Shown: one piece after another, positions 2,688-28,051 of the stretch | Layout: every line of letters starts with the position of its first letter | Numbering within the stretch: position 1 is the first letter of the stretch | IMG/VR virus record: IMGVR_UViG_2531839180_000001 | Length of the DNA stretch: 33,339 nt | Reading direction: 5' to 3' (one strand) | Origin: a virus | Lineage: Duplodnaviria > Heunggongvirae > Uroviricota > Caudoviricetes | Program-made: the position numbers and the translations under genes | The notes under the pieces: generated by a model | The model's input: only the letters and a program-made list of their open reading frames with translations | The model's database searches: none | Told to the model about the DNA's origin: nothing

Positions 2688-4467
2688 CTGACAGGATCCA
2701 TGTTGATTTGCGCTTGTGCTTATAGTTCAGGGGTTCATTACTTGCGGCATGAGCTATGGCAAAGAAGATGTCAGCGTGCCCGGTTTCTTCGCTACGTTCA
2801 GCGGTAAAAGTAACTTTATTGCCACTGTTGGTGGATTCCTGACGAATGGCCAGAAATGATGCCGGAATATCCGTGGCTTCCTCATCCCACTCAATACGGT
2901 TGGCGTAAATCAGATCCAGCATCTTCATCACCAGACGGTTTTTGGATTCAACGCTGTAATGAATGGCCACTGTTTCACGGCGGGCAAATCCCTGAACCAG
3001 CTCAAAGACACCATAGCCAAGCCCGGTGACGTCAATGCCGATAAACGTCATGTTATAGCGCGCCTTAATGCTGCGGATACGCTCTGCCATAAACTGGAAT
3101 GACATGCTGCGCCAGTGGTGTTTTTCCAGCACGCGGAATCGTTCTGCCGCAACCAGCGGCGGTGACAGCACCACAAACGTGGCGTTATCGCCGGAGCGTG
3201 CAGGGTCAAAGCCCCCCCACACTTCACGGTTTCCAAATGGCATGGCATCTTCCGGGTGAAAATCCTCCCACGTACTGACATCAACGCCACAGCGCACGAG
3301 GTCATCGAATTTAAAGACGCTCTCTTTGTCATCCACAAACACGCACATGAACAGCATATTGAACGCTGTTTCGTTGTACCGCTCGCGCAGCTCGTTGATG
3401 TCAGCAAGGTTAAAGCCGCCGGCAATGGCATCTTCCAGCGTAACCACATAGCGCCACTGACCATCAGGGCATTCGCGCCCGCCATCGCGCAGTTCATCAA
3501 AGGACGGGAACTCAACCCCTTTTCGTTTCGGGTCACCTTTGCGCCATTCATCGCCAGACCAGAACGGGTAACCCTGGTGTGTTTTGGATGACGGCGTGGA
3601 GAAATAGGTAATGCGCCAGTGCGAGTGGGTAGCCATACCGGATGCCACTTCATTGAGACGACGAAAACCGGGGATCCACAGATATTCGTCAATATACAGG
3701 TGGCCGCTGTTTGACTGTGCCGTATTGCTGTTGGTCGCCAGAAAATACAGTTCAGCCAGATTGCTTAACTTAACCGGATTGCCTTTAATGGGGATGCCAA
3801 ATTCCGTTTGTGCAATTTTTACAATATAAGTACGGAACACTTCGGCCTGACGTTTTGATGCCGATAAAAATATCTGTGTGTCGCCGGTTAATACCGCATC
3901 TTCAAACGCCTCAAACGCGAAGTAATACGTCGCCCCAATCTGGCGGGATTTAAGCAGGTTCCGTACACGGCGGAATTTGTTTTCACGCAGGCGCAACTGA
4001 TAAGCAAACAGTTTCTTCGTAAACGGCTCAAAACTTTCAGCAGTCAGTCCGGAAACGTCATTAGTTTTGCGGGGACGCTCTTTCTTACCTGCACCTTTTT
4101 CTCCGCGTTCTTCTTTTCCATAACGGCCAGGCTGGGGGATGTCCACTCCCATTCGCGCAATCTCAGCCATTCGTTCCGTGTGCTTGTTTCTGACCGACAT
4201 TAGTTTGACGTGATGACCAATCAGGCGGTCGAGTTCATCGTGTTCTTCCGGCGTTTTATGGTCACGCTCCGCCAGTACAGCGAGACGCCGGGCGATAACA
4301 TCCTCCACACCTTCCGTATTGAGCTGCGTGTACCACTCAAACTTTGTCGCCCAGTAATAAACAATTCGCGGGCTGTTCAGTCCGAGTTTCTTTTGTATTT
4401 CTTTTGGTGTGTGCCTTTTCAGATAGAGCGATTTTGCAGCAGCAATCACCTCATCAGAATACGCCAT
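2680..4467 (-). CDS. terminase ATPase / large subunit (P2 gpP-like, 595 aa)
   Basis: 595 aa; Walker-A-like segment; divergent from the scaffold-capsid operon exactly as P2 P versus O-N-M-L. Confidence 0.9.
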   Translation of the reverse strand: MAYSDEVIAAAKSLYLKRHTPKEIQKKLGLNSPRIVYYWATKFEWYTQLNTEGVEDVIARRLAVLAERDHKTPEEHDELDRLIGHHVKLMSVRNKHTERMAEIARMGVDIPQPGRYGKEERGEKGAGKKERPRKTNDVSGLTAESFEPFTKKLFAYQLRLRENKFRRVRNLLKSRQIGATYYFAFEAFEDAVLTGDTQIFLSASKRQAEVFRTYIVKIAQTEFGIPIKGNPVKLSNLAELYFLATNSNTAQSNSGHLYIDEYLWIPGFRRLNEVASGMATHSHWRITYFSTPSSKTHQGYPFWSGDEWRKGDPKRKGVEFPSFDELRDGGRECPDGQWRYVVTLEDAIAGGFNLADINELRERYNETAFNMLFMCVFVDDKESVFKFDDLVRCGVDVSTWEDFHPEDAMPFGNREVWGGFDPARSGDNATFVVLSPPLVAAERFRVLEKHHWRSMSFQFMAERIRSIKARYNMTFIGIDVTGLGYGVFELVQGFARRETVAIHYSVESKNRLVMKMLDLIYANRIEWDEEATDIPASFLAIRQESTNSGNKVTFTAERSEETGHADIFFAIAHAASNEPLNYKHKRKSTWILSDE

Positions 4468-4661
4468 AAATAAACCTCACCTGCTGATGCAATTTTAATT
4501 TGTGCATTTTCAGCAAAGGCTTTTTTAAAAACGAATATCGCTTTTCGGTATTTTTCGGATATATGCGCATATCCGAAAGTACCGGAAATTAATCAGATGA
4601 CGACGTTTTCATTTCTCCGTTAAATAACGCCAGTTTAATTTTTATCAGCGGATTAATTCAG
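4468..4661. promoter_or_regulatory. divergent late promoter region between terminase and scaffold operons; 10-bp inverted repeat with 6-bp spacer at 4553-4578
   Basis: AT-rich 194-bp intergenic region; TTTCGGATAT-ATGCGC-ATATCCGAAA dyad; duplicated TTAATNCAGATGACGA motif at about 4589 and 4653. Confidence 0.5.
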
Positions 4662-21315: not shown

Positions 21316-21862
21316 CGGGGAAGCCATTCTGCTGCGCAACATCACCGTCAGCGCCACCATGCAACTACCGGACAAAGATATGTCCGGACAGTCAACCAGC
21401 ACCACGAGCGCCCAGCAGGGAAACAAGGCTAAAGAGCTGCGCGTGTCGGGGGTTATTGATTTTAACGATGAAGCTATTCTGACCCGTATTTTTCAGCTTG
21501 CGGAGGCAACAGAAAGCAACGGTGCTAAAAAAACATATCGCATTGCTAACGCTACCGCGAAGGCAATCAATATGCGACAGGGGGTATTTTCTGGTGGCAT
21601 TGATGCCACGGAACAACAGGGAAAAATGCACTGGCAGGTCACCTTTACTCTCAGGGAAAAATTAAGCGTGCCAGAGAAAGCATCCGCACGCAGCGGTTCG
21701 CAGAAAACCATCGCCAGACAGCAGACTCAGAACGGTAGCGAACAGGCACCAGACAAAGGCATGAATACGCAAAGTTCGTTCTGGAAAAAAATCAATGATG
21801 CCGTTGGCTCTGGTCTGGATGCTGTTGGCATCGGGAGCGTGAAAGAGGAAGGGAAAACATGA
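21287..21862 (+). CDS. hypothetical tail-associated protein (occupies the P2 gpU position ahead of the hub gene)
   Basis: 191 aa; overlaps both neighbours; positional inference only. Confidence 0.3.
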   Translation: MTQMIVLALDGEAILLRNITVSATMQLPDKDMSGQSTSTTSAQQGNKAKELRVSGVIDFNDEAILTRIFQLAEATESNGAKKTYRIANATAKAINMRQGVFSGGIDATEQQGKMHWQVTFTLREKLSVPEKASARSGSQKTIARQQTQNGSEQAPDKGMNTQSSFWKKINDAVGSGLDAVGIGSVKEEGKT

Positions 21863-23556
21863 AATTGATACAACGCTGTATGATTAATGGCGAACGGGTG
21901 GAAATTGCCGATATAAACCTTGTTCTTACCCTGAATGCTGCCGGTCGTGGCTTCATTTCTGTTAACAATCTGTCACCCGAACACACACTTGCCGGCGCAA
22001 TGGTACAAATTGATCTCGGCCGTGACGGTGAAGCATGGCGCTATTTCTCCGGCTACATTGAGCGCGATCAACCTGCTGAAAATGGCTCACGTCGCCTTTT
22101 TATCCGTGAAGCAGCTGCTGTGCTGGATTTTGATTTCCCTTGCTCCATGCAACACCCGACGCTGCGGGGGGTACTCGATAATCTGGGGCGACAAAGCGGT
22201 ATCGTTTTTATCACTCCGGATGCGGATTATGCCAGTATACCAACTCCCTACATCACCCACAGCGGCAGCGGAGCACAACTGCTCAGCCAACTGGGGCGAG
22301 CATTCAGTATCAGCGATTACGTCTGGCACCCTATGCCGGACGGTTCTGTATTTGTGGGGAGCGCAGCTGATTCACGGTTTGCCAGTATTACTATGCCGGA
22401 TATTCCGCAACAGTACACACTCGGGCAAAGCGGCGGAAACAGCATCGACATCATGTTTATGGAAACTGTGCGACCGGGCGTGAATCTTCCCGCCGGGCGC
22501 ATTACCCGTGTAGCCCTCAACAACGAGAAAATGACCCTGACATGGGAGCGCCTTACCGCCACGGGTAGCCCTGTTTCCAAATCACCATTACGCAGACAAA
22601 TGGAAACACAGTTCCCGGAACTGGCCAGCGGTATTCTTCATACCCGGCTGGCGCGCGTCATTGCCCCAACGGAATCCGTCACCCTGGGCGATGTAGCCGA
22701 CAGCTTCCGCCCACGCTACGCCGTCGATGTGCAGTTGCTTGATGAGAACGGCAACGATAAAAACGATACACCTGTTTACCCGGCAGTACCCCTCCCCGTC
22801 CCCATGGCTGGCAGTGAGGCGGGATGTTTTGCCTACCCGCCAGCAGGCACCATCGTGGAAATATCCAACATTGAAGGACGACCGGATAAACCTGTCATCA
22901 GGCAAATCTTACCCGCGGGCCATAACCTGCCTGATGTAAAGCCCGGCGAACAGCTGCAGCAACAGCGCGCAGAAGTGTTTCAGCGTGTCACGACTGATGG
23001 AAGCTGGCACAGAGAAACCGATCAGCAAATCAGGGAGCATTCAGCCAGGCGAACCATTAACAGCGATCAGGAAGAACGCACAACAACAACCAGAACAACA
23101 ACAGTACAGGCAAACGACATAACCAGCGTTCTGGGAACCAGCAAGCTGATGACAGGTCAGACAGAACACATTACTACTGGCCATTATGCGATCGCAGCCG
23201 GTGAGCATATCCAGATGGTAGCGCAGGATTTGCTGACTAAACTCAAAGGGGCGACATCCACCATCGAGCATAACCTCACCGAAAACGTGGGAGGCCGCAG
23301 AACATGCCGGGCGGACGGTGGCCTGGAATTTACCGCCCCGACTGTATTTATTGGGCGCGGTGGCTCACGGGAAAAATCCGGACTTAATCTGCTGACGTTG
23401 TTGATTGATATTCTGGATCTGGTTCAGTTGCTGGCCACACACACTGCAAACCACACCCACAGCAACACTGGCACACCAACAAACAGCAGCGAACTTGCCG
23501 CAGACGCCCAACAGGCTACGAGCCTGCGCGAAAAATACGGCGACCTTATCGCCTAA
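21859..23556 (+). CDS. baseplate hub / central spike protein (gpD-like, possibly fused to a gpV-like spike tip)
   Basis: 565 aa, last gene of the late operon; C-terminus carries HTANHTHS (HxH), reminiscent of iron-binding spike apex motifs. Confidence 0.5.
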   Translation: MKLIQRCMINGERVEIADINLVLTLNAAGRGFISVNNLSPEHTLAGAMVQIDLGRDGEAWRYFSGYIERDQPAENGSRRLFIREAAAVLDFDFPCSMQHPTLRGVLDNLGRQSGIVFITPDADYASIPTPYITHSGSGAQLLSQLGRAFSISDYVWHPMPDGSVFVGSAADSRFASITMPDIPQQYTLGQSGGNSIDIMFMETVRPGVNLPAGRITRVALNNEKMTLTWERLTATGSPVSKSPLRRQMETQFPELASGILHTRLARVIAPTESVTLGDVADSFRPRYAVDVQLLDENGNDKNDTPVYPAVPLPVPMAGSEAGCFAYPPAGTIVEISNIEGRPDKPVIRQILPAGHNLPDVKPGEQLQQQRAEVFQRVTTDGSWHRETDQQIREHSARRTINSDQEERTTTTRTTTVQANDITSVLGTSKLMTGQTEHITTGHYAIAAGEHIQMVAQDLLTKLKGATSTIEHNLTENVGGRRTCRADGGLEFTAPTVFIGRGGSREKSGLNLLTLLIDILDLVQLLATHTANHTHSNTGTPTNSSELAADAQQATSLREKYGDLIA

Positions 23557-23620: not shown

Positions 23621-24387
23621 CATATCTGCCACCTGATTAATGCGTTCTGCGTGCCATTCCGGCGCTGTATGCGCACACCACGTAAACGGTGTGACGTAAA
23701 GCGTGAGGTGACGTAAACCGCGCTACCCCCTCCAACCCGCGGGTTTTGTGTCGAAACAGTTTTTCAGTTTTCTGCCGTGCAAAAATGACCGCCAGCCCGC
23801 GCAGCAACTGAGGGAAAAGCGGAGATCTGAAATTTCACGCTTTGAAATTTTTTTCAGTTTTCAGAGAGGTTTTTACGATCACGCAAATGGCAGGAGCAAT
23901 AAAACAGCATGATATTAAAAGAGTTTTCATACTTTACGCGAGACGAAAAACGATCACGAAAGGATCACATTAAACAACCATCAAACAACGAAGCCAGACG
24001 CGGCGCAGCCTGCGTAAAATTAAGAGTCAAAATTAAACTGAAAAAAGGATCAATACCGCACCTCGATCGCACATGACGATCTACGCAGCAACAGGACGAA
24101 AAAACCGGCGCGAACGCCGGCGGAAGCATGTATCAAATGCGTGATTGAATAATGTCTGCGTTCAGGATATGCACAACAGAGTGTTGAAATTAGTCAACGT
24201 ATTGAAGCAAGAAAAAAAAGCAGGCTAGAATTCACGCGGACACCTTTCGACTGATGGCTGGACAGCAAACACGAAGGCCAGATGTAAAAAGGCCCAACTA
24301 AACCTTATGTTCAACTCTGGGCGTTTCACAACGTAATCAATAAGCGGGCAAGAGCTTAGCGCCTTTGCAAAAAAAGGAGCAAGTGCT

Positions 24388-24528
24388 ATGTCGCAAAAAT
24401 CGCTTATAGCCATCACGTTCTGCGTGACGGCAATCCTCATCATCTGGATGCTGCACGGTTCGCTGTGCGAGATACGGATGAGATTCTGGGGAGCGGAGTT
24501 TGCGGCGTTCTTACAGTGTAAGCAGTAA
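24388..24528 (+). CDS. Hok/Gef-family type I toxin (46 aa)
   Basis: AAGGAG 9 nt upstream of ATG; MSQKSLIAITFCVTAILIIWMLHGSLCEIRMRFWGAEFAAFLQCKQ has an N-terminal TM helix and the SLCE(I/L) core of Hok proteins; below the ORF-track size cutoff. Confidence 0.7.
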   Translation: MSQKSLIAITFCVTAILIIWMLHGSLCEIRMRFWGAEFAAFLQCKQ

Positions 24529-24616
24529 GGAAACCGCGACGGGGGAGTAATCCCCCGTCAATCGGTTGCTAAGGTTGGCTGAAGTGGCACCCTATCTCAC
24601 AGACATGAACAACAAA

Positions 24617-24648
24617 CCCGCAGCGTAAAAACTGCGGGTTTTCTTTTT
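24617..24648 (+). terminator. rho-independent terminator downstream of the hok-like gene
   Basis: CCCGCAG / CTGCGGG stem followed by TTTTCTTTTT. Confidence 0.7.
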
Positions 24649-24694
24649 GTTGCCCTCACAAATGAGGGTGACACTATTCGTAAGCAATAGGCAT

Positions 24695-24740
24695 GACAGA
24701 TCGATGCAATAAATCCGATCGATAAAAACGATCGATTTGT
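24695..24740 (+). promoter_or_regulatory. cluster of three GATC (Dam) sites upstream of the com-methyltransferase operon
   Basis: GATC at 24699, 24717 and 24730 within about 35 bp, 50-80 bp upstream of the com start. Confidence 0.5.
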
Positions 24741-24780
24741 TATCATATCGGCAGCAGTAACCACACAAGAGGTGCCGCAA

Positions 24781-24978
24781 ATGACGCAAAATGTACGATG
24801 CAAAAATTGCAACAAACTACTTGCCCGCGCCTCATTTCACTACATTGAAATAAAATGTCCGCGCTGCAAAACACTTAACCAGATAACGAGAGCCATTGAG
24901 CACCCCACACACATGAGGAGTTATGACCGTGGGGATCGCAATCCAGCACCAACCAGCACATACACCGGAACACACTAA
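24781..24978 (+). CDS. com: Com-like zinc-finger translational activator
   Basis: VRCKNCNKLL...HYIEIKCPRCK closely matches phage Mu Com as I recall it; AAGAGG SD; ORF overlaps the methyltransferase start by 56 nt. Confidence 0.75.
   Translation: MTQNVRCKNCNKLLARASFHYIEIKCPRCKTLNQITRAIEHPTHMRSYDRGDRNPAPTSTYTGTH
24903..24934 (+). promoter_or_regulatory. hairpin sequestering the methyltransferase SD and start codon
   Basis: CCCCAC (24903-24908) pairs with GTGGGG (24929-24934); the loop holds GAGGAG and ATG 24923. Confidence 0.5.
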
Positions 24979-25729
24979 GGTTTATCAGACTGACAATGCC
25001 ACGCTCTGTCGTGGGAATGCGCTGGAAATATTGCCGCTGATTGAGCCAGAAAGCATTGATGCCTTAATCACTGACCCACCTTACAGTTCGGGTGCGACAC
25101 ACAAGGCCGGACGCACCAACCAGGGCAGCCATGCAAAATATCTGAACGGCGAGAACCTTCACCGCTTTGATGGGTTCGCGGGTGAAAACATGGACGCCCG
25201 TTCGTGGGCTTACTGGACACAATTATGGATGGCACAGGCACACCGCGCAGTCAGGCCGGGCGGTTATGCCCTGGTATTTACTGACTGGCGACAACTACCA
25301 GCTTTAACCGATGCGTTTCAGGCCAGTGGCTTTACATGGCGCGGCATCATTGCGTGGAACAAGGGGAGGGGGTCACGAACACCCCATACCGGGTATTTCC
25401 GGCATCAGTGCGAATACATTGTCTGGGGCAGCAAAGGCCATTTAGATAAATCGCCTTCGGGGCCGTTCGACGGCTGCATGACGTTCCCGGTTATCCCGTC
25501 AAAGAAAATGCACCCGACCGGAAAACCAGAAGAACTAATGGCAGAGCTGGTCAGAACTGCGAATAGTGGCGGAACAGTCCTTGATCCCTTTATGGGGTCA
25601 GGAACAACGGGTGTGGCTGCACTGAAAGCAGGGCGAAAATTTATTGGTATAGAAACCAGTGATCATTATTTTGAGGTAGCAGCGCAGCGGCTTCGGGGGA
25701 CTATTACCACAACCATTTCGGCTACATAA
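24923..25729 (+). CDS. DNA N6-adenine methyltransferase, beta-class (DPPY before FxGxG), orphan
   Basis: DPPY motif IV near the N-terminus and DPFMGSGTTG motif I near the C-terminus; no adjacent restriction endonuclease gene. Confidence 0.85.
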   Translation: MTVGIAIQHQPAHTPEHTKVYQTDNATLCRGNALEILPLIEPESIDALITDPPYSSGATHKAGRTNQGSHAKYLNGENLHRFDGFAGENMDARSWAYWTQLWMAQAHRAVRPGGYALVFTDWRQLPALTDAFQASGFTWRGIIAWNKGRGSRTPHTGYFRHQCEYIVWGSKGHLDKSPSGPFDGCMTFPVIPSKKMHPTGKPEELMAELVRTANSGGTVLDPFMGSGTTGVAALKAGRKFIGIETSDHYFEVAAQRLRGTITTTISAT

Positions 25730-25733
25730 GACA

Positions 25734-25757
25734 AAGCCCGCATTTTTTTGCGGGCTT
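25734..25757 (+). terminator. hairpin after the methyltransferase gene, near the prophage edge
   Basis: AAGCCCGCA / TGCGGGCTT 9-bp stem with a T6 loop. Confidence 0.35.
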
Positions 25758-25830
25758 GTATATCATTACTGATGTGGACAGTTTGTGGATGTTTATAAGA
25801 AATAAGCTAATAGAAACAATTTGTTAGCTT

Positions 25831-25858
25831 TACAAAAAACGCGCCCGAAGGCGCGTTG
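25831..25858 (-). terminator. raiA rho-independent terminator
   Basis: On the minus strand: ACGCGCC-TTCG-GGCGCGT then TTTTTTG, just downstream of the raiA stop. Confidence 0.75.
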
Positions 25859-25880: not shown

Positions 25881-26276
<396 letters not shown>

Positions 26277-26455
26277 TCAAAATGTGTGATGGAAATCTCA
26301 TAATTTTGTCACTTTTTGTCAACGAATCTTTTTTGTGAGAAATCGCAGGAAGAGGTGTTTTTTTACTTGAGGAATATCTCAAAGCGAGCCATATTTGATG
26401 AGATCGATAGTGACTAAATCGCTTCAGTTTCACAACTAACAGAATAAAAAAACGG

Positions 26456-26468
26456 CAGCTCAAGGCTG
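26456..26468. repeat. 13-bp target-site duplication, left copy (CAGCTCAAGGCTG)
   Basis: Identical 13-mer flanks both ends of the IS4-derived element. Confidence 0.8.
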
Positions 26469-27277
26469 TAATGCCAGTCAGTTAAGCAACTGACTGGCTC
26501 TTTTTCGGGGCTGTGGGGTATTTCCAGGGCCTCTCCTTTACCACTCTCGGGAAGGCCCTTTCCCTTCTTGTCGGTAATTTCACTGGTTGTCCCATACTTG
26601 CAAGATCGCGCATCAGCTCCGGTATACGTCCCGGTGAAGCGCATGGCGTCCGTCATCGACGTCAGCAGATGGCTGGTCAGTTCCATCTGGCAGACCATTT
26701 TGACCTGCGGGTAGAGCGCCGGGTTCTCGGCATGTGTCTGGCGGGGGAAGGCTGCATCGTTCTCTGGTGTATCCGGTGTGCGCCAGAACACACCATCGAT
26801 GGCCAGCAGGGTCAGGCCGCACCAGTGCGGATGCAGCGTGGCGTTATGCCAGAGCTGCGCTGTTTTCGTGAACACGCGTCGGACAGCCTCACTTCCCAGG
26901 CGCTGGCGGGCCTGAATAACGGCACTGGGGGCAACGAAGGGGCGATTGCCCGGCAGCATGATGTCCAGGCGATTCACAATCTGGTGAAGAGGTTCTTTAC
27001 GCTCAAGCGCCATGCCAACAATACACCAGACCATCATTTCGAGGGGAAGACGGCGCTTGCGTAGCGTTACAGTACCTGATTCGGCAAGGCAACGAGAGAT
27101 GAGTTCGGGGTCGAGGTAATCCCCCAGAGAAGTCAGTGGGTTACGCAGAGAATCGTAACGGGATACCAAATCAAGGGCCTGTCCAATGAGCATAAAAAAA
27201 TCCGGAAACGAGTGAGCGTTTCCGGATTCTTACACAGGCACTGGATCGGTCAACTGATCCTTAACTGATCGGCATTA
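26469..27277 (-). mobile_element. IS4 derivative with internal deletions (about 0.8 kb, non-autonomous)
   Basis: Imperfect terminal inverted repeats beginning TAATGCC at both ends; transposase N-terminal ~180 aa and last ~45 aa colinear with IS4 transposase as I recall it; middle missing. Confidence 0.8.
26482..27193 (-). pseudogene. IS4 transposase remnant (internally deleted, frame disrupted)
   Basis: Track ORF 26414..27193 is IS4-like to about residue 180 then out of frame; authentic C-terminus ...RVVKERPWKYPTAPKKSQSVA readable in another frame, ending at 26482. Confidence 0.75.
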
Positions 27278-27313: not shown

Positions 27314-28051
27314 TTATGTATTGCTGCTGTTTGCGGCGATGATTTTCGCTACTTTTTCAGCTTGCGCATTCATCTGCATCTGACGGTATGCATTTTCCAT
27401 CAGCGGCAGCGCATCACGCGTAGCCTGGGTATCCGGGTAGTCGCGCAACATGCCTTCTACGCGGTTAACGACGGCAACCCATGCGCCACGTTCTGTATAG
27501 TACTCGGCAACGGAGTATTCATATTTCGCCAGACGATCTTTCAGGAATACCAGACGTTTGGTGGCATCGGTGGTGTACTGACTGTTCGGATAGCCGCGCA
27601 CCAGTTTGGAAAAGTCACTAAACGCAGCTCGTGCATGTTGAGGATCGCGATCGCTACGATCGACGCCAAAGAACCCTTGCAGTGCACTGTCATCGAGCGC
27701 CATATTGGTCAGGCCACGCATGTACATGACATAATCGATATTCGGATGGGTCGGGTTAAGGCGAATAAAACGATCGATGGCAGCCTGTGCTAACGGCAAA
27801 TCGGCGTTTTTATAGTAGGCGTAGATGAGATCCAGCTGCACCTGCTGCGAATACGGACCAAACGGATAGCGATTATCTAACGCTTCCAGTTGCGTTATTG
27901 CCTGTCTCCAGTTACCGTCCTGCAGCTTTTGTTGTGCAGTCGCGTAAATTTCATTTGGCGGATTATCAGGTACTTCTTCCTTTGACCCCGAGCAACCCGC
28001 CAAAAACAGGCTTAGTGTGGCGGCTGCCACCAGATATTTCATGCGCGTCAT
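27314..28051 (-). CDS. bamD: outer membrane protein assembly factor BamD (lipoprotein)
   Basis: 245 aa; lipobox LAGC near the N-terminus; conserved divergent arrangement with rluD. Confidence 0.95.

Follow-up and report, generated by a model that had tools for sequence, protein, structure and literature searches.

A probable com–methyltransferase operon under a Mu mom-type control region in a P2-like prophage of Escherichia coli

We analyzed a two-gene cassette in the viral DNA record IMGVR_UViG_2531839180_000001, the whole stretch of which (33,339 nucleotides, nt) is called the window below. Its first gene, com, encodes a small zinc-ribbon protein and overlaps the second gene, which encodes a DNA methyltransferase. 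The cassette is quite probably a two-gene com-methyltransferase operon that a P2-like Escherichia coli prophage carries as a moron at its right end (attR). An earlier interpretation made from the letters of the DNA, hereafter the sequence-only reading, had likened it to the region that controls mom in phage Mu. We compared the cassette element by element with the right-hand end of phage Mu's genome (NC_000929) and found it homologous to the mom control region in Com, in the sequestered translational start, and in the upstream GATC triplet of Dam/OxyR type. The surroundings differ, as Mu is a transposable phage with Mom as cargo, whereas the host element of the window is P2-like and its cargo is a beta-class methyltransferase.

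Control elements and cargo of the cassette

The com open reading frame (ORF) matched the Pfam family Zn_ribbon_Com (PF10122, E 9.5e-12). Alignment of its product with Mu Com gave 46% identity with the four zinc cysteines (C7, C10, C26, and C29) conserved, which confirms the Com-like zinc-finger ORF noticed from the sequence. The cysteines of the CxxC...CxxC pattern are invariant across 16 diverse Com proteins. The overlap of com with the methyltransferase start is borne out by the coordinates of the two genes and is 56 nt long; both genes are on the same strand, and no terminator lies between them. In Mu, com likewise overlaps the start of its target.

Mu Com recognizes CC(N)2-3GAG in a hairpin loop adjoining the translation inhibition structure (TIS); its native target has been experimentally defined as the 19-mer GAAUGCCUGCGAGCAUCCC, and SELEX yielded the bipartite motif NGAGNNCC(N)2-3GAGNNCCNN (PMC6483171). 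The predicted Com-binding RNA site of the window, GAGAGCCAUUGAGCACCCC, is an exact fit to the SELEX motif and is identical to the Mu 19-mer at 13 of 19 bases without gaps. In the minimum free energy (MFE) structure, its CC-N3-GAG is borne by a small hairpin with a GC/GC stem (24892-93 with 24900-01) and a 6-nt loop, CAUUGA. The element GCC-N3-GAGC is invariant in all 15 aligned com junctions.

The TIS that follows encloses the Shine-Dalgarno (SD) sequence GAGGAG (24915-20), AUG 24923, and the in-frame GUG 24929. Its outer stem pairs CCCCAC (24903-08) with GTGGGG (24929-34), its inner stem pairs CAUGA with UUAUG, and the six outer pairs are formed in 15/15 junctions. Thus, RNA folding supported the start hairpin of the sequence-only reading, with the SD and the start sequestered in 24903-34. 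The corresponding Mu hairpin, CCCAC/GUGGG, also sequesters the start and holds the mom GUG in its 3′ arm (PMC6483171). The hairpin of the window is longer and more stable, with -14.8 kcal/mol for a 53-nt region against -10.7 in the equivalent Mu region. Within the stem, the synonymous third positions of GAG and CCC never vary, and the His of the encoded EHPT may become Pro without the stem being touched, which points to constraint acting at the level of the RNA and not of the protein.

The RefSeq annotation starts the methyltransferase at ATG 24923. Judging from the sequence around both codons, GUG 24929 is the more likely start, since it lies 8 nt from the SD, against 2 nt for AUG 24923, and the relative L027 has no AUG. 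A fourth GATC is present at 24933-24936 within the 3′ arm of the TIS (GTGGGGATCG). It is missing in L027 and in the groups with Mom or C5 methyltransferase cargo, and is therefore probably incidental. A search of Rfam gave no family near threshold for the Com site, the hairpin, or a sok-like RNA.

Upstream of com, three GATC sites are located at 24699, 24717, and 24730, corresponding to -82, -64, and -51 from the com ATG, as had been pointed out from the sequence. Their spacing of 18/13 is exactly that of the Mu triplet. The exact arrangement GATC-N14-GATC-N9-GATC has a single occurrence in the window and none in 100 shuffles, and the blocks ATAG and GATCGA are invariant in the alignment with Mu. 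The classical OxyR consensus is ATAGnTnnnAnCTAT-N7-ATAGnTnnnAnCTAT. When it was scored over both strands of the whole window, the top two scores, 15/20 each, fell at 24687 and 24696. The diverged relatives L018 and L027 retain all three GATCs, though the bases between them have changed.

A second triplet, at 24048, 24065, and 24078 with a spacing of 17/13, close to that of the com triplet, may be another Dam-sensitive site; it (24048-24081) lies in the gene-poor segment 23557-24387, about 830 bp without a RefSeq-annotated gene. Further tight clusters of three GATCs occur in the host bamD region at 27244-27270 (27 bp) and 27643-27661 (19 bp).

The cargo ORF matched the Pfam family N6_N4_Mtase (PF01555, E 2.5e-33). 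DPPY (aa 51-54, 25073-25084) lies N-terminal to FMGSG (aa 223-227, 25589-25603), which is the motif order of the beta class of amino (N6-A/N4-C) DNA methyltransferases. There is no restriction gene beside it, the next gene being host raiA, and the enzyme is therefore an orphan; the description of the cargo as an orphan beta-class DPPY methyltransferase thus holds, and every coordinate in the sequence-only reading proved correct. The enzyme showed no match to PF02086 (D12, Dam-like), and the cargo is not Mom (PF25680). Among solved structures, those that match it best are a DpnA-type adenine methyltransferase (5hek, 1e-20) and CcrM, and MboIIA and RsrI are also related to it; its amino acid identity is 97.7% to the enzyme of phage Chuche, 53% to Bpm of BPP-1, and 46% to that of Smp131. 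We rejected solved structures and phage homologues as guides to target specificity, as the DpnA-type enzyme, CcrM, and BPP-1 Bpm are too distant or uncharacterized. Identity with M.EcoGII was also rejected, as M.EcoGII has 349 aa and Com is unmentioned in its paper (PMC5778455).

Table 1 Features of the cassette and its borders in the window.
Feature	Position	Strand	Remarks
Intrinsic-terminator-like hairpin	24614..24641	+	10-pair stem, then T run; ends upstream hok gene; left boundary of cassette
Palindrome CCCTCA-CAAA-TGAGGG	24652..24669		perfect, 6 bp; optional cassette part between hok terminator and OxyR-like region
OxyR-consensus-like region with three GATC (Dam) sites, putative	24687..24736		homologous to triplet region upstream of Mu mom promoter
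Sigma-70 extended -10 promoter, predicted	24719..24746	+	-35 TCGATA (24719-24), 16-nt spacer, TG (24738-39), -10 TATCAT (24741-46)
com Shine-Dalgarno GAGGTG	24769..24774	+	6 nt ahead of ATG; read from sequence
com, 65-aa zinc-ribbon protein, Mu Com homologue	24781..24978	+	ATG 24781, TAA 24978; PF10122
Com-binding RNA site, predicted	24888..24906	+	fits SELEX motif; 13/19 bases as in Mu 19-mer
Translation inhibition structure	24903..24934	+	outer stem CCCCAC/GUGGGG; inner stem 24911-15/24921-25
Orphan beta-class DNA methyltransferase, probably N6-adenine-type	24923..25729	+	268 aa from ATG 24923, 266 aa from GTG 24929; PF01555
GC-rich hairpin	25734..25757		directly past methyltransferase stop; end of operon and prophage, before raiA

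Prophage context and exchange of cargo behind com

The position of the cassette was determined with a sister genome (NZ_OZ474909) that contains an identical cassette. In this genome, the prophage is inserted between pheL and raiA; genes for an integrase, Cox, and a replication endonuclease are located on its left side, and it also encodes a repressor-like helix-turn-helix (HTH) protein. P2-type genes for the GPO scaffold, a P2-family capsid, gpM, portal, and terminase are present, and an Ogr/Delta-like zinc finger (PF04606) is encoded at 1330-1653 on the minus strand of the window. The P2-like nature of the host element, asserted in the sequence-only reading, is supported by the Ogr/Delta zinc finger, scaffold, and capsid together with the integrase, Cox, and replication endonuclease of the sister genome. 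Several tail-region proteins are named only as domains of unknown function (DUF) or generically in RefSeq, and no Pfam family matched the 565-aa ORF at 21859-23556.

Among 50,697 phage genomes, none covered more than 5% of the prophage DNA. The cassette itself is 94% identical in DNA to that of phage Chuche, and the 1.2-kb stretch containing it is held to at least 80% by 171 of 5426 complete E. coli genomes. In Chuche, it sits between a hok-like gene and the integrase gene in a P2-like gene order (Cox-like excisionase, integrase, portal, and terminase), and the pair is annotated as "gpCom control of modification" and "DNA methyltransferase". High identity of the cassette to Chuche, combined with at most 5% coverage of the prophage DNA by any of these phage genomes, shows that the cassette is a mobile moron common to Peduoviridae.

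At its left border, bases 24600-24648 are identical to phage P88. The palindrome listed in Table 1 is kept in most close relatives and is missing in three (L006, L007, and L013). On the right side, raiA of the host occupies 25881-26222 on the minus strand.

Directly upstream of the cassette, an ORF at 24388-24528 (plus strand) encodes a 46-aa toxin of the Hok/Gef family (PF01848, E 3.7e-8), accompanied by hairpins at 24537-24560 and 24614-24641; "MokW-like" homologues adjoin the cassette in Chuche and are also found in Stx phages. Between raiA and bamD, a truncated IS4-family transposase gene (26414-27193, minus strand) retains only the Nterm_IS4 domain (PF13006, E 1.8e-33). This remnant is not found at that position in NZ_OZ474909 despite the identical cassette.

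To see which genes follow com elsewhere, we used the Com protein alignment to find Com-encoding viral contigs and classified the gene behind com in the best 80 of 398. Mom (PF25680) was found at 33 of these loci, a beta-class methyltransferase (PF01555) at 25, a D12 Dam-like methyltransferase (PF02086) at 10, and a C5 cytosine methyltransferase (PF00145) at 6 by motif and at 3 more with matching N-termini. What the enteric groups have in common is com with its Com site, the stem CCCCAC/GUGGGG, and GTG GGN AAC ("VGN") as the first codons; the cargo diverges about 10 nt past the start codon. Mom, beta-class, D12, and C5 enzymes all follow this com/TIS module and start at the GTG-GGN in the 3′ arm of the stem. 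In two pairs of loci, nearly identical com, Com site, and hairpin precede Mom in one locus and a C5 methyltransferase in the other (L028 with Mom and L033 with C5, and also L044 and L045), with the junction near 3155 in each locus. Since divergence sets in about 10 nt past the shared GTG-GGG-AAC, the cargo has been exchanged right behind the regulatory RNA. The more distant loci retain GCC-N2-3-GAGC and a hairpin that pairs this element with the SD region, and the non-enteric loci with D12 cargo have no GATC triplet. The GATC-com-hairpin-GTG module amounts to a plug-in platform for expression, with four unrelated DNA-modification enzymes swapped in behind it within about 10 nt of the start codon.

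Pairs of com and a methyltransferase gene are known from other phages. In FluMu (HI1522.1/HI1523), Pnm1 (NMA1821), the Hia5 island, and phage B3 (ORF47/48), com is followed by an adenine methyltransferase gene in place of mom. For such pairs of Mu-like prophages, Mom-like regulation through Com and a function against restriction have been suggested, as have potential Com sites near the beginning (5′ end) of hin1523 (PMC3299994). Those enzymes belong to the Dam-like D12 class, are non-specific, and were aligned to M1.DpnII and EcoDam (PMC3299994), whereas the enzyme of the window is of the beta class with PF01555. In the P2-like Burkholderia phage KS5, a "Com translational regulator" (gp21) overlaps an N4/N6 methylase (gp20) (PMC3091744), and in the P2-like Stenotrophomonas phage Smp131, gp05 is a Com (PF10122, E 5.9e-20) overlapping the methyltransferase gp04, the 46% identical enzyme mentioned above. 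In tailocin clusters of Pseudomonas, Com homologues have been noted in linkage with cargo genes of other kinds (PMC4684702).

A methyltransferase behind com is therefore not new, contrary to what the sequence-only reading implied, as it has been published for Mu-like prophages and appears in the annotation of three P2-like phages (KS5, Smp131, and Chuche). These three share both the gene pair and the phage family with the prophage of the window, and their records contain no analysis of regulatory elements. In the literature, we found no prior description of this E. coli cassette or of any Dam/OxyR-controlled prophage methyltransferase. What is added here is an element-by-element demonstration that a P2-like prophage of E. 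coli possesses the complete control region of Mu, together with the rearrangement of the promoter and the pattern of cargo exchange.

Promoter, timing of expression and alternative explanations

Within 24500-25850, the predicted sigma-70 promoter with an extended -10 (Table 1) is the sole promoter-like site. GATC2 overlaps its -35, and GATC3 is in the spacer, 7 nt ahead of TATCAT. TGnTATCAT is kept in all relatives of the beta-methyltransferase type, including L024-L026, which are devoid of the GATCs. With the predicted transcriptional start at about 24753, the GATCs would coincide with the core promoter (positions of about -54, -36, and -23), whereas those of Mu lie about 50-90 nt upstream of the transcription start.

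The promoters themselves also differ. In the alignment with Mu, a segment of about 30 nt between the third GATC and the leader is absent from the window. In Mu, this segment carries the site for the activator C, the poor -35, and the -10 TAAGAT of the C-dependent Mu promoter. In the window, the predicted extended -10 promoter abuts GATC3 instead.

The sequence-only reading had placed expression late. A P2 Ogr-type TGT-N12-ACA was not found upstream of com; the window contains 6 matches against 8.2 expected, the nearest of which is within com. No motif was common to the P/O divergent late region (4468-4661) and the region upstream of com. Among the prophage genes of the sister genome outside the window, there was no product named C or Mor, and the named late activator is Ogr/Delta-like. 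Because the Mu C-binding site and C-dependent promoter are missing, TGT-N12-ACA is absent upstream of com, and a sigma-70 promoter of its own is predicted for the cassette, the claim of late expression is unsupported; the cassette may instead be expressed in the lysogen, perhaps in a bistable manner like agn43. In the divergent intergenic region between the terminase and scaffold genes (4530-4600), a long imperfect palindrome centered on CGGATAT-ATGCGC-ATATCCG is present, which is not of the TGT-N12-ACA type; this palindrome may be a binding site of the Ogr/Delta-like activator of the prophage.

Strictly late expression in the manner of Mu nevertheless deserves consideration as an alternative. 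It supposes that the lysogen keeps the cassette silent and that a phage activator, C in Mu and an Ogr/Delta-like protein here, turns it on only at a late stage of the lytic cycle, in addition to control by Dam and Com. The prophage does encode the Ogr/Delta zinc finger, and the Smp131 pair lies directly behind the late portal gene without a GATC triplet or a promoter of its own; its hairpin uses different sequences. Methyltransferases of E. coli prophages are also often silent in lysogens, as reported for M.EcoGI/II (PMC5778455) and elsewhere (PMC4659465). We nevertheless consider this timing doubtful, as the missing activator sites described above are joined by strong terminators between the cassette and the late tail operon and by an extended -10 promoter that is predicted to be self-sufficient and is conserved.

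Loss of the activator-dependent promoter, with the GATC triplet now placed on a self-sufficient promoter, could alternatively have produced a phase-variable switch of the agn43 or gtr kind. Competition between Dam and OxyR would then divide lysogens into heritable ON and OFF subpopulations, and ON cells would have an additional methylation pattern. In agn43 (flu) of E. coli K-12, three GATCs lie in an OxyR-type site with a spacing of 19/13, almost the 18/13 of the window, and Dam/OxyR switches also occur at phage gtr operons. The OxyR/GATC site is the best match of the window to the OxyR consensus and extends over the predicted promoter's -35 and spacer, and the cassette is at a moron position with its own terminators. 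The arrangement is not the same, as the agn43 GATCs set in where the IsrC transcript is annotated to start, at a distance of about 220 nt upstream of flu, whereas those of the window cover -54 to -20 of the predicted promoter. Such a switch is drawn from geometry and has no need of the Com/TIS layer, the GATC triplet is deleted in L024-L026, and no report of it was found in the literature. We therefore regard it as unlikely. If true, it would represent a Dam/OxyR-controlled phase-variable methylome ("phasevarion") in E. coli, with Com and the hairpin as a threshold filter.

Both explanations concern transcription. At the level of translation, the hairpin and the Com-like motif could be by-products of overlapping coding, with plain translational coupling of the two genes and a Com that binds no RNA. 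Ribosomes translating com must unwind 24903-34, so some Com-independent coupling is possible, which weighs against strict control by Com. Furthermore, the conserved EHPT of Com is encoded by nucleotides of the stem, as is the VG of the cargo, and coding constraint could contribute to the conservation of these nucleotides. However, the C-terminal tail of Com is otherwise unconserved, and in Mu Com it is reported to be disordered and unnecessary for RNA binding (PMC6483171). The invariance of synonymous stem positions beside a changing His codon, and the retention of motif and stem before three unrelated cargo genes (Mom, beta-class, and C5), also speak against simple coupling. In Mu, Com is required and binds the corresponding RNA (refs 13 and 14 in PMC3299994). 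Taken together, plain coupling is improbable. That Com is a DNA-binding transcription factor acting on the promoter and not on the mRNA is more improbable still, as the one point in its favor is the misleading RefSeq name "Com family DNA-binding transcriptional regulator", whereas the founder of the Com family is an RNA-binding translational activator (PMC6483171) and the RNA target motif is conserved in the right place here.

Proposed mechanism and implications

Based on these comparisons, we propose the following control of the methyltransferase. Transcription would start from the sigma-70 extended -10 promoter of the cassette (24738-46). Homology to Mu suggests that OxyR would bind and close the promoter as long as its GATCs lack methylation, and that the promoter would stay open once Dam has methylated them. 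On the mRNA, com would be translated first, while the ribosome-binding site (RBS) and the start of the methyltransferase (AUG 24923 or GUG 24929) are locked in the 24903-34 hairpin. Com would then bind the adjacent small hairpin (24888-24906), in which the element GAGCACC shares bases with the foot of the locking stem, and its binding would open the hairpin for translation of the methyltransferase. Phage DNA, along with whatever host DNA is present, would be modified by the enzyme, the most plausible purpose being protection of the progeny from restriction.

The steps of this mechanism differ in strength. Com-dependent unlocking of the start hairpin is the best-supported one; it is likely from the sequence and fold of the leader, to which the effect on translation is added by inference. 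Control of com transcription by Dam and OxyR, as suggested by homology and geometry, is somewhat favored. Comparison with Mom and Hia5 makes a role against restriction plausible.

Several observations weigh against the proposed control. The MFE of the hairpin (-14.8 to -18 kcal/mol, z about -2.1 to -2.2) is only about 2 standard deviations below that of shuffled sequences, 7-8 of 200 of which fold equally well, and by energy alone it is modestly unusual. The outer stem of the TIS is near-invariant, and its covariation is limited to the outermost pair, which is C-G in one and U-A in the other of the P2-type and Mu-type lineages; this single compensatory pair probably reflects one evolutionary event. 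The promoter is a consensus match only, and shuffled sequence gives a mean of 1.7 such matches per region. The window has 4 clusters of three GATCs within 35 bp against 0.75 expected. Simple clustering was therefore rejected as evidence, three other such clusters being present, and the argument for the triplet rests on its exact spacing and on homology. Finally, L011 has lost GATC2 only and L024-L026 have lost all three GATCs; Dam/OxyR control is thus dispensable in some lineages. The deletion in L024-L026 apparently arose by recombination between GATCGAT repeats, with the TGnTATCAT promoter kept. These variants and L011 are ready-made controls for Dam/OxyR dependence.

Nothing is overturned by these findings, as com-methyltransferase pairs had already been described. 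They indicate that P2-like phages have acquired the whole mom control region of Mu as one unit, with its Dam/OxyR site, com gene, Com RNA site, and start hairpin. For annotation, the RefSeq name of Com should be read with this in mind, and the likely start of the methyltransferase is the GTG of the hairpin and not the annotated ATG. The cassette also provides a testable regulatory model for an uncharacterized prophage methyltransferase, and a tight lock by Com and the hairpin would fit the silence of some E. coli prophage methyltransferases in lysogen methylomes.

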